In this document: piece by piece, positions 2,857 to 25,452 of the stretch
How positions within the stretch are numbered: the first letter of the stretch is position 1
Layout of the letters: every line of letters starts with the position of its first letter
Assembly (NCBI RefSeq): GCF_049075655.1
Contig: NZ_CP157522.1
Span: forward strand, 288,001-352,000
Reading direction: 5' to 3'
From: Methanothermococcus sp. Ax23
Lineage (GTDB): Archaea > AGJL01 > Methanococci > Methanococcales > Methanococcaceae
Length of the DNA stretch: 64,000 nucleotides
Made by a program: the position numbers and the translations under genes
Notes under the pieces: generated by a model
The model's input: the letters and a program-made list of their open reading frames with translations, nothing else
Database searches by the model: none
What the model was told of the DNA's origin: nothing

Positions 2857-3369
2857 TTATTCCACATACTCCCGGAGCTCCGACAACAACTCATACGCTC
2901 GGTTCAAATCTCCAACTTCAACAGCATGTTCCAACTCACTAAATAATATTTTCACAGAAGCAATGTTGTATAAATCATTATCAATAAACACTTCCTTAAA
3001 CTCATAAATCAACTCTTTTAATTGTTCTTTTTTCATGTTTATTATGTCATCCTTTACATAATCATATACTGTGGATTTTGGAATTCCGACCATCTCCGCA
3101 GTCTCTCTTATTGAATGCCCTTCTTTTATAAGGTTTAATAGTTCTCTCTTTTGAGTTTCATTTATTTTCTTTTTCCTTCCCTTTTGTTTAGATTTAACTT
3201 CAATAAATATTCCTGTGTTCTCTTTAAGAATTTGGATTTTATATGCCATTTTGGGATGGTTAAATACTGATTCTGGCATTCTTATAAATACCAAATCTTT
3301 ATTGGAATCTACAATGATTTTGTTTATTTCCTCCCAACTAACTATTTTATTAATGTCCTTTTCTATCAT
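2857..3369 (-). CDS. HTH protein (resolvase/terminase-like HTH), partner of adjacent recombinase; paralog of 24050-24583
   Basis: KGRKKKI...EGHSIRETAEMVGIPKSTVYDY; ATGA overlap with recombinase stop. Confidence 0.8.
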   Translation of the reverse strand: MIEKDINKIVSWEEINKIIVDSNKDLVFIRMPESVFNHPKMAYKIQILKENTGIFIEVKSKQKGRKKKINETQKRELLNLIKEGHSIRETAEMVGIPKSTVYDYVKDDIINMKKEQLKELIYEFKEVFIDNDLYNIASVKILFSELEHAVEVGDLNRAYELLSELREYVE

Positions 3370-3920
3370 CCTTCTCTCCTCAAAACATCCTCCGCTATTT
3401 TAGATTGAGTATATTTTAAAATCATGTCTATTTTTTTATGCCCTGTTATTGATGCCACAATTTGAGCAGGATATTGCTTTTTACCAAGGTATGAAATGTA
3501 GGAATACCTCAAAGAGTGTGTATTTATCCCTAAGTTTGTTAAATACCATGATGATGCATTGTTTGCAATCCGTTTAATGGTTTTATTTTCCCATTCCAAC
3601 ACCACATCTTTTGTCAGTTCAACATCTCTATTTGATATTTCCTTTGGAAGAATGAGTTTTCTCATTGCATTATCTTTCCTTTTTTCCACTTTAACAGATA
3701 CTTCATGTTCTTTTGATTTTGTAAATTTGATTAGTCCTTCAATCGCTTCCCCTATTCTGCAACCATTTCTCAATTGTATGAGTCCCAAAATCAAATAAGC
3801 ATATTTTTTCCTGTCGTTTTTATAAAGGGGTTTCTTGTTTCTCAACTGTTCCAGTTGTTGGATGAGTTTTTGTTTAGTTTCTTCATAATCCAATCCCATA
3901 TCCCAGTCATTTTCTCCCAT
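3366..3920 (-). CDS. Short tyrosine recombinase (catalytic domain only, 184 aa)
   Basis: Catalytic residues R (NGCRIGEA), K (VEKRK), HSLR, GH and Y (KYTQ) present; no N-terminal core-binding domain. Confidence 0.9.
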   Translation of the reverse strand: MGENDWDMGLDYEETKQKLIQQLEQLRNKKPLYKNDRKKYAYLILGLIQLRNGCRIGEAIEGLIKFTKSKEHEVSVKVEKRKDNAMRKLILPKEISNRDVELTKDVVLEWENKTIKRIANNASSWYLTNLGINTHSLRYSYISYLGKKQYPAQIVASITGHKKIDMILKYTQSKIAEDVLRREG

Positions 3921-4073
3921 GTTGATTACCTCTCATAATGTTAGAATGTCCGAAAAATACTAACTTAAAATAATAAAACTATCCTTTGATTAGTTTAATC
4001 GAATGTCTAAAAAAATAATCCATTCCAAAAATTTCCAACTAACAAACTATACATTTTGTTAGGTCGTATAGTT

Positions 4074-4328
4074 TCAACTAATCCCTAAGAGTTTTAGTTT
4101 TTCACGGAATTCTTTAATTGGGATTTCATAACGCCATTCTCCAAATACGACATACACCATTCTTTTTTTTCTATCGTGGCTAATCGGTATGCTCCGAATA
4201 TCATCCATCTCTTTAACATAGCCTCTTATATACGCTTCCTTATAATATCCGTTGTATGAATGATGCCTTTTTCTATCTCTCTTGTGTAATTTTTTAAAGC
4301 ATTTCCGTTTCATGTTGATCATGTTCAT
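4074..4328 (-). CDS. Basic hypothetical protein (element)
   Basis: 84-aa ORF overlapping upstream ORF. Confidence 0.5.
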   Translation of the reverse strand: MNMINMKRKCFKKLHKRDRKRHHSYNGYYKEAYIRGYVKEMDDIRSIPISHDRKKRMVYVVFGEWRYEIPIKEFREKLKLLGIS

Positions 4329-4509
4329 CCCTTTTTATCTTATAAACTGTCCCGTCTTCTTTAACTAAAATCACTTCTTTATAATTGCCCTCTATTTCTT
4401 CTGCGTCAATATTGAGAAAACAGTTTGCAGATATTAAAATTCCTTCAGTTGAGAACTTTATAGCATCTATTTTCTTAACATTGAATTCTTTTAAGTTGTT
4501 TTTGTCCAT
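4294..4509 (-). CDS. Hypothetical protein (likely start MDKNN at 4509)
   Basis: GTGA RBS-like motif before ATG 4509; upstream extension is AT-rich promoter-like sequence. Confidence 0.5.
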   Translation of the reverse strand: MDKNNLKEFNVKKIDAIKFSTEGILISANCFLNIDAEEIEGNYKEVILVKEDGTVYKIKRDEHDQHETEML

Positions 4510-4629
4510 AATATCACTAAAAGCCCATTTGATTAGTTTAATCGAGTAAATTAAGTTAGAGTATAATATGTTATTAAAAGAATATTGAATGCTGATGATA
4601 TATAGAGCAATTTCCAATAAGTGCTTTCT

Positions 4630-4896
4630 TCATTCCATTTCTTCTTCATCTTCCTCAATATCTTCATCATACCCCATCTCCTCCAAATATTTTCCATATT
4701 TCTTCAACATTTGCATCGTATATTCAACATCTTCTTTGAGTGCCTGCCACCGTGCCAGTGCATCCGTGTAATCTTTCCATGTTTCTTCATCAAGATCTGC
4801 ACCAAAAATTAAAAAACACTTTTCAATTTCATTATCGCTGCCATAAACCTTCTGGTATATATGCCCCATTGCGTTTATGATGTCATGGATATTCAT
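4630..4896 (-). CDS. Acidic hypothetical protein
   Basis: 88-aa ORF translationally coupled to upstream gene. Confidence 0.65.
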   Translation of the reverse strand: MNIHDIINAMGHIYQKVYGSDNEIEKCFLIFGADLDEETWKDYTDALARWQALKEDVEYTMQMLKKYGKYLEEMGYDEDIEEDEEEME

Positions 4897-23515: not shown

Positions 23516-24031
23516 TTGAGAGCATTTGTAGTTGGACGATGGCAGCCATTTCATAATGGACATTTAACAATAGTAAAAGAAATTGCCAATGAAGTAGATG
23601 AGCTCATAATTGGAATAGGTAGTGCTCAAAAAAGTCATACTCTTAATGACCCATTTACCGCAGGGGAAAGAATAATGATGATTATCAAAGCACTTAAAAA
23701 ATTTGGATTCCCTTATTATGTAATTCCAATTAAGGATATAGACTTTAATGCGGTGTGGGTATCCTATGTTGAAGCATTAACTCCACCTTTTGATGTTGTA
23801 TATACTGGCAATGCATTGGTGAAGGAGCTCTTCGAAGAGAGAAATTATATGGTTAAAAAACCAAAATTATATAACCGAAAAGAATACTCTGGAACTGAAA
23901 TAAGAAGAAGGATATTGAATGATGAAGAATGGAAACATTTAGTTCCAGAAGAGGTTGTTGATGTTATCAATGAAATAGATGGGGAAAATAGAATAAAACG
24001 ATTAAGTAAAACTGATTATAATATTCAATAA
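23516..24031 (+). CDS. nadM: Nicotinamide-nucleotide adenylyltransferase (TTG start)
   Basis: [20 protein letters not shown]. Confidence 0.95.
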
Positions 24032-24049
24032 TAAAATCTAATAATATTT

Positions 24050-24583
24050 TTATTTTCTTTGCATTTGTTTGATGTATTTAATTATTTCTTTTAGTTTTTT
24101 GTAGGCAGTTTCAAGGTCGTTATTATCCACATACATTTTTAATTCTGAAAACTGGGTTTCTATATATGGATTATATAAATCATTTTTAATAAGGTATTCT
24201 TTATATTCATACATTAATGAGGTGAGCTCCTCCATTTTCATTTCAGTTTTTATTTCATTTATCTCTTCCTTTACATTGGTAAATATTGTGCTCTTTGGTA
24301 GATTTAACATACTTGCTATTTTGTTTATCGAATACCCTTCTCTATATAATTCCAGTATTTCTTTTTTTATATCTTCATCTATCTTTTTACTCCTGCCCCT
24401 TTTATCGTTTTCCACTTCCACAATTATATGGTTCTTTCTCATAAATTCGATTTTATATGTCATCTTTGGACTGCTGTATATGCTGTTTGGCAGTTTGACT
24501 ATTACCATGTTATTTTTGGCACTTTCCACGAGCTCGTTTATTTCATCCCATCTTAAAAAATGGTGAAATTTTAATTCAATCAT
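24050..24583 (-). CDS. HTH protein, paralog of 2857-3369
   Basis: Shared WDEIN/WEEIN, PKMTYKI/PKMAYKI, GR.KKI, PKST and YEYKE/YEFKE motifs. Confidence 0.85.
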   Translation of the reverse strand: MIELKFHHFLRWDEINELVESAKNNMVIVKLPNSIYSSPKMTYKIEFMRKNHIIVEVENDKRGRSKKIDEDIKKEILELYREGYSINKIASMLNLPKSTIFTNVKEEINEIKTEMKMEELTSLMYEYKEYLIKNDLYNPYIETQFSELKMYVDNNDLETAYKKLKEIIKYIKQMQRK

Positions 24584-24768
24584 ATGAATACCTACATATC
24601 ATCTTTTTTTAAATTTTTTAAACTATATTTTTTATTATATATTTATTTATATTCATTATAGCTATAAATTTAAATAAATTGCTAAATATATTATTGTATT
24701 TTTTAGTGTAAATATTTACATACACACTTTAAAAAAATACCTATTTAGTTCAGAAATTTTTTACCAAT

Positions 24769-24795
24769 TGTTGCCTTATGTATCGTAAGGCAACA
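24769..24795. promoter_or_regulatory. Palindrome with 10-bp arms and 7-bp spacer (operator or recombination core site)
   Basis: TGTTGCCTTA-TGTATCG-TAAGGCAACA immediately before the TATA-like box of the recombinase gene. Confidence 0.6.
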
Positions 24796-24837
24796 TTTTA
24801 TATATGAGCTCCATAATATACATATACTGGTGATAAT

Positions 24838-25452
24838 ATGGTGGAAATTAAATTAAATAAAAGAAATGATAGGTCGTGGGATAAAGGTTTGGATTTTGAT
24901 AACATATATCGTCTATTTGAAAGAGACATCGTGAAAATAAGGGAAAAACTAAACAATGGAATAGTTTATAAAAAAGACATTAAACGCCTTGCTTATTTAA
25001 CCATTGCCCTATTTCAACTTAGAAACGGATGCAGGATTGGAGAGGCAATTGAGGGCATGATTTTGATATGTAAAAATAACAATTTAAATTGGGACAAGCC
25101 TATTGAAGTTAGAGTTAAGGTAGAGAAAACAAAAAAAACAGTATCATACAGAGATATGGTTCTTCCATCAATCATTACCAAGCATGATGTAGAGCTCATA
25201 CGGGATGCAGTTTTAAATTTGGAAAATGCCAAAAGACCAAGAATGAGGATATACACTTGGTTAAAAAATCACTATGGAATAAATACACATTCTTTAAGGT
25301 ATGCATTTATTACCAAATATGCTGTAATGAACACATCACCACAATTAATTGCAAAAATGACAGGTCATGTGAATTTAAACCATATTATTACATATACGCA
25401 AGAGAAAGTGGCAAAACAAATGTTATATGATTTGGAAAAGCATATAAAATAA
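24838..25452 (+). CDS. Short tyrosine recombinase (204 aa), paralog of 3366-3920
   Basis: WDKGLD, QLRNGCRIGEAIEG, KVEK, GINTHSLRY, TGH, YTQ. Confidence 0.9.
   Translation: MVEIKLNKRNDRSWDKGLDFDNIYRLFERDIVKIREKLNNGIVYKKDIKRLAYLTIALFQLRNGCRIGEAIEGMILICKNNNLNWDKPIEVRVKVEKTKKTVSYRDMVLPSIITKHDVELIRDAVLNLENAKRPRMRIYTWLKNHYGINTHSLRYAFITKYAVMNTSPQLIAKMTGHVNLNHIITYTQEKVAKQMLYDLEKHIK

Follow-up and report, generated by a model that had tools for sequence, protein, structure and literature searches.

The 64,000-nucleotide stretch of Methanothermococcus sp. Ax23 considered here (the window; contig NZ_CP157522.1, positions 288,001 to 352,000) contains two copies of a gene pair encoding a short tyrosine recombinase (R1 and R2) and a helix-turn-helix (HTH) partner (H1 and H2). 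One pair resides in an integrated plasmid and the other in the chromosome, and beside each lies a composite site consisting of an inverted repeat (IR) and an adjacent 19-bp motif (M). The two proteins and the site probably constitute a recombination module with divided labour, in which R would act on the core and H on the neighbouring M; about half of the weight of this reading falls on multimer resolution as the probable job. We know of no earlier description of a tyrosine recombinase with labour split in this way, the enzyme reading the core and a partner giving anchoring and direction. Neither an R-H pair nor an IR+M site is described in the parts of the literature covered, including passages of PMC6972569, PMC8371274, PMC3543421, and PMC2958812, and a search on the name 'MJ0770' returned no paper.

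The genome of the window (G000) measures 1.67 Mb on two contigs (C1 and C2), and the comparison set comprises 40 Methanococci genomes, the class and phylum sets being the same 40. Individual loci carry L numbers.

Two protein families and their linkage

The four genes occupy the following positions in the window.

3366-3920, minus strand: R1, 184 amino acids (aa), a catalytic-domain-only tyrosine recombinase of the MJ0770-like / STSV-SMV-like family, in the integrated plasmid
24838-25452, plus strand: R2, 204 aa, chromosomal paralogue of R1
2857-3369, minus strand: H1, 170 aa, its start overlapping the R1 stop by 4 nt
24050-24583, minus strand: H2, 177 aa, chromosomal paralogue of H1, divergent from R2 with a 254-bp spacer

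Each family is present in only two copies in the genome. R1 and R2 share 41% identity (E 2e-44), and PF00589 is their sole Pfam domain, a weak match at 30.5 and 24.6 bits, respectively, with a gathering cut-off of 27.1. Neither matches PF02899 or PF13495, i.e., Pfam finds no N-terminal SAM-like core-binding domain, and only some 54 residues precede Arg I. Across an alignment of 50 R sequences, R55, K80, H135, R138, and Y170 are invariant, H161 is retained in at least 90%, and an N-terminal pair, W6-D7, is also conserved, within a W-D-x-G-L-D-Y motif; the invariance of the catalytic residues indicates that selection maintains R as an enzyme. The AF2 model of R (pLDDT 91.8, pTM 0.88) consists of one catalytic domain, which Foldseek matches with a probability of 1.00 to 3nkh, XerH (5jjv; TMq 0.59), the catalytic domain of HP1 integrase, and XerA. 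The sequence-only reading of this DNA had described recombinases of 184 and 204 aa that keep R-K-HxxR-H-Y and lack a core-binding domain, and open reading frames (ORFs), Pfam, AF2, and alignment agree with it.

Both recombinases match phrog_9208 (E 4.8e-36 for R1 and 1.4e-27 for R2), with R1 aligning to profile positions 73-238 of 241. The 25 phage records that match R1, at 35%-38% identity over 96%-99% of its length, are annotated as integrases of ATV, SMV1-4, STSV2, ATSV, and YNP1/2. At 90% identity the R family forms 57 clusters of 105-234 aa, and no fused or longer form of at least 323 aa was found, which is weak evidence. Against the XerA profile NF040815, R1 scores 16.4 bits, far under the cut-off of 220.

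H1 and H2 share 40% identity (E 5e-44) and match HTH_7, the resolvase HTH (PF02796), over residues 64-104 with 35.1 and 27.3 bits (cut-off 23.8). In the AF2 model (pLDDT 89.6, pTM 0.50), an alpha/beta domain (1-59) is followed by a basic GRKKK arm, a three-helix Hin-type HTH (64-104), and three long C-terminal helices. The Hin DNA-binding domain 1hcr matches H at E 0.028, and Foldseek aligns H to 1jj8_C with a TMt of 0.65 and a root-mean-square deviation of 2.2 over 41 columns, covering the HTH only. G64 is invariant in an alignment of 35 H sequences, and R65 and K68 are conserved in at least 90%. The N-terminal 59 residues have no fold match in the PDB and no usable match in the protein atlas, and the C-terminal helices match nothing either. 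A degenerate serine-recombinase catalytic domain was considered for the N-terminal part and found no support, given that PF00239 does not match H, Ser11 of H1 is not conserved in the 35 sequences, and no fold match was obtained. The excisionase profile TIGR01764 gives 14.6 bits (E 0.032; cut-off 28.8). Among 1.84 billion proteins, the H family has 10 full-length representatives at 50% identity, all other matches being to the HTH alone; an H-like cluster (P0066) carries the source name Candidatus Nanopusillus.

R occurs in 16 of the 40 genomes and H in 23, and an H gene lies within 1.2 kb of 16 of the 19 full-length R genes. Nine of these 16 pairs are co-directional, R then H, and overlap or are at most 17 nt apart; the other seven are divergent. 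A partial R in G035 has an adjacent H as well. A second short recombinase family, R' (185 aa; PF00589 at 94 bits; 23% identity to R), adjoins a second H subfamily, H', in nine of nine cases—all seven genomes of genus g2, G037, and G007—with H' directly downstream and, in G018, an insertion of about 1 kb between the two. The H genes of genus g2 had been candidates for H without a recombinase; this was discarded once R' was found beside them. Over the 16 pairs, R and H identities correlate (Mantel r 0.69, reached in 0 of 5000 permutations), which, judged from the sequences, shows co-inheritance and not contact. The coupled arrangement in the element, the divergent one between nadM and a radical SAM gene in the chromosome, and a linkage that outlasts both sequence divergence and change of orientation had all been read from the window beforehand, and each is borne out here. 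As far as searched, the partnership with H appears specific to Methanococcales. A homologue (P0021) is present in Thermococcus aciditolerans.

The composite site

An IR followed after 3-5 nt by M is found near 17 of the 19 R loci. The IR has arms of 8-14 bp and a spacer of 4-9 nt as scored, and M takes the form GGT(T/A)A, an A/T-rich stretch, and G(G/A)AC. The arms vary by group, remaining palindromic: TAATCAAA/TTTGATTA, GTTGCCTTA/TAAGGCAAC, TTGGACTTT/AAAGTC(C/T)AA, and TTAACTTT/AAAGTTAA. R'-H' loci show a distinct variant, in which an IR of type ACAAAAT/ATTTTGT abuts M. Within the window, the following sites are present.

3947-3996, minus strand: site 1a, IR CTAATCAAA, 6-nt spacer, TTTTATTA (3971-3993), then 5 nt and M (3947-3965)
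4022-4064, minus strand: site 1b, of R' type, IR ACCTAACAAA, 8-nt spacer, TTTGTTAGTT, overlapping a weak M-like motif (position weight matrix score 14.4, weak)
4509-4545, minus strand: partial third copy, 18 nt repeated exactly from site 1a (left arm and flank), right arm degenerate, no M
24747-24798, minus strand: site 2, IR AATTGTTGCCTTA, 7-nt spacer, TAAGGCAACATTT (24766-24798), with M (24747-24765) facing H2

Site 1a ends 26 nt ahead of the R1 start codon. Its counterparts upstream of R in G037 and on G015:C2 have a perfect IR, as do those on the plasmids G000:C2 and G006:C2. Site 1b resembles the sites upstream of R' genes. The IR of site 2 abuts a TTTTATATA box about 35 nt ahead of the R2 start.

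The placement of the composite site relative to the genes is free. It stands directly upstream of R in five loci (L008, L021, L011, L013, and L014), between divergent R and H with M facing H in others (L005-L007, L009, L010, L022, and L015), and downstream of H, pointing back into it, in L017 and L023. Fixed internal geometry combined with free placement argues against a plain promoter and fits a cis-acting recombination site. An ordinary promoter as the sole role of M was rejected, since in L017 and L023 M is downstream of H and antisense.

The two halves of the site follow different proteins. Over 14 loci, IR similarity tracks R identity (r 0.68; 0.63 as a partial correlation given H, with a partial of -0.13 for H), and M similarity tracks H identity (r 0.66; 0.58 given R, with a partial of -0.03 for R). 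The same division is seen between G038 (L010) and G039b (L022), whose H proteins are 91% identical and whose M motifs are identical, with R at 48% and different IRs; G038, whose R is 71% identical to R2, has an R2-like right arm. In these two orthologous loci, similarity breaks at the M-IR junction, which suggests an exchange of the recombinase-plus-core half of the module. As IR follows R and M follows H, the core is probably read by R, and M by H. It had been proposed that the HTH protein supplies DNA recognition or directionality in trans; as stated, this is not supported, since the core follows R and not H. H is therefore more likely to be an anchor or directionality factor at the flanking M, to go by this co-variation, than a stand-in for a core-binding domain on both arms.

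Sites also occur on replicons that encode neither protein. GTTGCC-N9-14-GGCAAC is present exactly twice in G000, once beside R2-H2 and once at position 4554 of the 7732-bp plasmid C2, with M on the same side; C2 also has a perfect R1-type site with M (2671-2716). This plasmid has a replication protein and no R or H. The two contig ends each hold part of its large primase/helicase-type replication protein, indicating that the contig is circular, and about 1.7 kb (3995-5712) without an ORF of at least 70 aa contains the R2-type site and may also hold the origin. Each of the three replicons of G005 has exactly one perfect GGACTTT-N6-AAAGTC, three in all, with M after every copy and R-H on chromosome C1 only; matches with one mismatch elsewhere are at the level of control patterns. 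The small contigs G015:C3 and G010:C9 have GTAATC-type sites, the type adjoining the R-H pair on G015:C2. G015:C3 (13123 bp; L096 and L097) has two identical 218-bp site stretches 6562 bp apart, i.e., half the contig, and may be a head-to-tail dimer of a 6.56-kb plasmid, whether real or an assembly artefact. Within one cell, the sites on different replicons have different spacers, which fits recombination between sister copies and would disfavour recombination between replicons.

These distributions bear on the idea that H is a transcription factor only, acting on R and neighbouring genes, with IR+M as its operator or promoter and R a stand-alone or decaying enzyme. The site does lie 12-45 nt upstream of R in co-directional loci and between the genes in divergent ones, where it abuts a TATA-like box, and H has no catalytic motif, its HTH being the only clear match. 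Regulation alone is nonetheless improbable: the site points back into H from downstream in L017 and L023, IR follows R instead of H, R keeps its catalytic residues unchanged in 50 sequences, and sites are found on replicons without R or H. On a 5.1-kb plasmid of the latter kind, with rep as its only gene, the M next to the clear IR points away from rep and the other M towards it.

Around R1, several copies of the site lie close together. The 18-mer shared by site 1a and the partial copy is found in two places in the genome only, as direct repeats, and the 543-bp segment between them was considered as a clean insertion at site 1a. This was rejected, as comparison with G037 places the left border about 25-40 nt outside the site and not in the spacer. 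In a contig of run X4 (16936 letters), which contains a related element of about 93% identity, 409 other letters replace the 491-bp window segment 4064-4556; the borders fall at the outer edge of site 1b, divergence beginning exactly at 4064, and 11 nt past the partial site copy. Segment 4064-4556 is thus a variable cassette beside the sites, and the X4 replacement keeps a weaker form of the cassette-insertion idea alive.

Partial and second sites near R1 could also belong to a FimB/FimE-like or shufflon-like switch, with inversion of DNA or exchange of cassettes altering the expression of nearby genes; in size, R is close to FimB/FimE, and H shares its type of DNA-binding domain with Hin invertases. 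No replicon, however, has a second, inverted copy of a same-type site, and the copies around R1 are direct repeats that differ in type or are incomplete. The four sequencing runs compared are all represented by contigs, in which rare recombinant forms are invisible, and the contigs of three runs show no alternative orientation. Such a switch is considered very unlikely.

Host element and proposed role

R1-H1 is hosted by a 21.4-kb plasmid of the pT26-2 family integrated in tRNA-Leu(TAA) and bounded by a 59-bp direct att repeat.

15424-15482, plus strand: right att repeat, 59 bp; the left copy is the 3' half of tRNA-Leu(TAA), C1:282006-282064

The tRNA gene itself spans 281973-282060 of the contig, which is 6 kb to the left of the window. 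Three T26-6p domains, which are markers of the pT26-2 family, are encoded by the ORF at 10635-12665. The integrase of the element lies outside the window (320 aa; SAM-like N-terminal domain PF13495 plus PF00589) and adjoins a 1186-aa helicase-type replication protein; with R1 and R2 it completes the set of tyrosine recombinases in G000. Methanococcales pT26-2 elements have classical integrases targeting tRNA-Ser or tRNA-Leu, according to the portion of PMC6972569 drawn on here, and the present element agrees. Given that it holds its own complete integrase, R1-H1 is a second, accessory module and not the integrase.

This has consequences for a further explanation, in which R-H is the integration/excision module of a separate mobile element, i.e., an integrase with its recombination directionality factor (RDF), the sites are attP/attB, and the chromosomal pair is what is left of an ancient integration. 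Among named proteins, R is closest to the annotated integrases of Sulfolobales viruses in the 25 phage records, and ATV is described as integrating in the relevant passages of PMC8371274, which counts for this explanation. So do the X4 contig, where 409 letters replace 4064-4556 with borders at site copies, and the stacking of several site types upstream of R1 and, in L054, of R'. Against it stand the full integrase and clean 59-bp att repeats at tRNA-Leu, the synteny of the chromosomal pair in six genomes of the genus, and the position of the extra 543 bp near R1, which relative to G037 were not inserted at a spacer. Sites, moreover, mostly occur once per replicon per type instead of as hybrid pairs flanking inserted DNA. 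Tyrosine recombinases do not usually tolerate partner sites with differing spacers, and here the spacers differ between sites of one cell. An integration module is accordingly judged unlikely.

In the chromosome, H2-R2 sits between a nadM-like ORF (23456-24031) and a radical-SAM-like ORF (25454-26677), and syntenic orthologues of R2 in the genus are 71%-96% identical. The order nadM-H-R-radical-SAM is kept in G000, G033, and G027; radical-SAM adjoins R in G026, and nadM adjoins H in G034 and G035. The sequence-only reading took the chromosomal pair for a domesticated copy that could resolve or control such elements. Its synteny extends to six genomes, and the cognate sites on plasmids without R or H are consistent with a copy acting on other replicons. 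R1-H1, for its part, is accessory to an element with a complete integrase.

Under the divided-labour reading, R would recognise and cut the palindromic core, and H would bind M, 3-5 bp from one arm, via its Hin-like HTH and basic arm. From there, H may hold, position, or activate R, possibly through contact between the two proteins, and the asymmetry of the site would render the reaction directional. Both proteins would act in trans on replicons carrying a cognate site, mostly one copy per type, and convert replicon dimers and multimers to monomers, which is the job of Xer at dif, cer, and psi. Of the two sites on the 7.7-kb plasmid, one is thereby predicted to be served by R1-H1, together with the integrated pT26-2-type plasmid, and the other by R2-H2, together with the chromosome.

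Several observations weigh against this proposal. Part of the correlation of IR with R and of M with H may come from common ancestry of the loci and from the physical linkage of site and genes, and these loci also supplied the M consensus. Used by itself at low thresholds, the M weight matrix is unspecific (a score of 16.5 gives 4 matches, with 3-6 in simulations), and only M with an adjacent IR is informative as a site detector. R stands alone, with no adjacent H, in L012, L016, and L024, and an intact H stands alone in L040 (G007); together with a decayed H in G001 that has no small recombinase beside it, the latter makes up the only such H genes found. R or R' occurs in 23 of the 40 genomes, and hence, the system is dispensable and not essential. 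G006 has neither R nor H, yet sites are found on its 5.1-kb plasmid, which encodes rep only, and in its chromosome near an integrase, so that the site may have a use independent of R-H. The cumulative GC skew, whose extremes fall at 175 kb and 825 kb, is too weak to mark site 2, at 313 kb, as lying at a replication terminus. The viral integration described for ATV (above) belongs here too. Lastly, no H-like gene accompanies the R relatives in ATV, SMV1, and pGE2. The R fold can consequently work in other arrangements, and these relatives may be integrases; co-occurrence of the two families, strong among the 40 Methanococci genomes, does not extend to them.

The archaeal Xer enzyme XerA sets the background for the resolution function. 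None of the 40 genomes reaches the XerA cut-off (NF040815, 220 bits); some genomes of genus g2 encode XerA-like proteins of 287-301 aa with 165-201 bits. In 17 of the 40 there is no XerA-profile match at E 1e-10 or better, and five of these (G001, G004, G015, G016, and G032) are assemblies of 1-2 contigs that are 96%-99% complete. A broader and more tentative idea is that R-H at IR+M provides chromosome dimer resolution in XerA-less Methanococcales, that plasmids and elements share it via sites of their own, and that it evolved at least twice, as R-H and as R'-H'. If true, this would offer a candidate answer to how these archaea keep chromosomes and plasmids monomeric, and would explain a conserved non-coding element of small methanococcal plasmids. 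With a site of about 55 bp and two genes that each measure about 0.55 kb, the module is small; coming from hyperthermophiles and thermophiles, it might serve as a thermostable recombination tool.

Other features of these neighbourhoods may be recorded here. About 135 bp to the right of the att repeat, window positions 15590-15661 contain a degenerate second copy of the tRNA 3' end and flank (82% identical), possibly a trace left by a previous integration into this tRNA. An acylphosphatase-domain ORF (2281-2724) lies just downstream of R-H on the same strand; in pMEFER01 (NC_013157.1, 17758-18198), an acylphosphatase ORF is likewise downstream of R-H, on the opposite strand and with a winged-HTH gene between. 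Two of the solo R loci, L012 (G007:C1:9788-13330) and L016 (G030:C42), belong to different genera and share a nearby conserved protein of about 140 aa that starts ...ITAKGH.N...THKTTLEITKENYLTP, which hints at a second old chromosomal position for R. In pGE2 (NZ_MN477947.1), a free Pyrococcus plasmid of the pT26-2 family, a 172-aa R-like gene is directly upstream of a 373-aa integrase, across the start of the record (200-718 and 22822-23943).

Comparison with known systems

Among known systems, the closest to the proposed function is Xer, which acts at dif, cer, and psi, as XerCD with PepA, ArgR, or ArcA, and includes XerS-difSL, XerH-difH, and the archaeal XerA-dif. Like R, these are tyrosine recombinases whose sites have two inverted arms around a short spacer. 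In both systems, a replicon mostly has a single site of a given type, also when it encodes no recombinase; plasmids with a Xer site then draw on the proteins of their host. Accessory DNA flanks the Xer core on one side, where other proteins bind it, as is predicted for H at M. XerS and XerH genes adjoin their own sites, as reported in the sections drawn on of PMC5357621 and PMC2958812, and R does likewise. R differs in being no Xer orthologue and in lacking a core-binding domain. The accessory element is here a 19-bp motif 3-5 bp from the core, as opposed to about 180 bp in Xer, and the partner is a dedicated, co-inherited HTH protein, where Xer uses housekeeping proteins.

The STSV/SMV integrases (ATV gp72 and SMV1 gp34, among others; some records read 'Uncharacterized protein MJ0770') belong to the same sequence family as R. 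No Pfam domain was found in this family by the authors of a review, in the part of it used here (PMC8371274). The viral proteins are presumed integrases of about 241 aa (ATV gp72, 241 aa), with some 70 more N-terminal residues than R1. An H-like origin for these 70 residues in the ATV integrase was tried and rejected (hhalign probability 0.2; in Pfam, only Mrr_N at E 0.15).

Among archaeal recombinases with helper proteins, the nearest precedent is IntSNJ2 of the haloarchaeal virus SNJ2, a tyrosine recombinase which, like R, has small partners. It is co-transcribed with Orf2 and Orf3, one of which has a DNA-binding domain, and together these raise recombination up to 180-fold, according to section 13 of PMC8371274. 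As described there, IntSNJ2 differs from R in being a two-domain protein that is active alone, and its helpers, a MarR-like and a coiled-coil protein, are unrelated to H and absent from many relatives.

H itself resembles the serine recombinases of the Hin, Gin, and resolvase type, in which a GR-basic arm is followed by a three-helix HTH (HTH_7); it is without their catalytic domain. FimB and FimE, of about 200 aa, have a strongly shortened N-terminal part and need architectural DNA-binding proteins. They invert a segment between two inverted sites and use the host proteins IHF and Lrp, whereas R has mostly one site and a dedicated partner gene.

Two-domain enzymes of the Met26-2, lambda-Int-like, and XerA type possess the N-terminal core-binding domain that R1 and R2 lack. 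Tyrosine recombinases are normally C-shaped clamps, with core-binding and catalytic domains on one chain. A catalytic-domain-only enzyme with a dedicated HTH protein, acting at a bipartite site that is shared by plasmids without the genes, would be a new arrangement of a tyrosine-recombinase system. If confirmed, it would represent a natural split version of the clamp design, in which the halves of the site co-vary with the two proteins.

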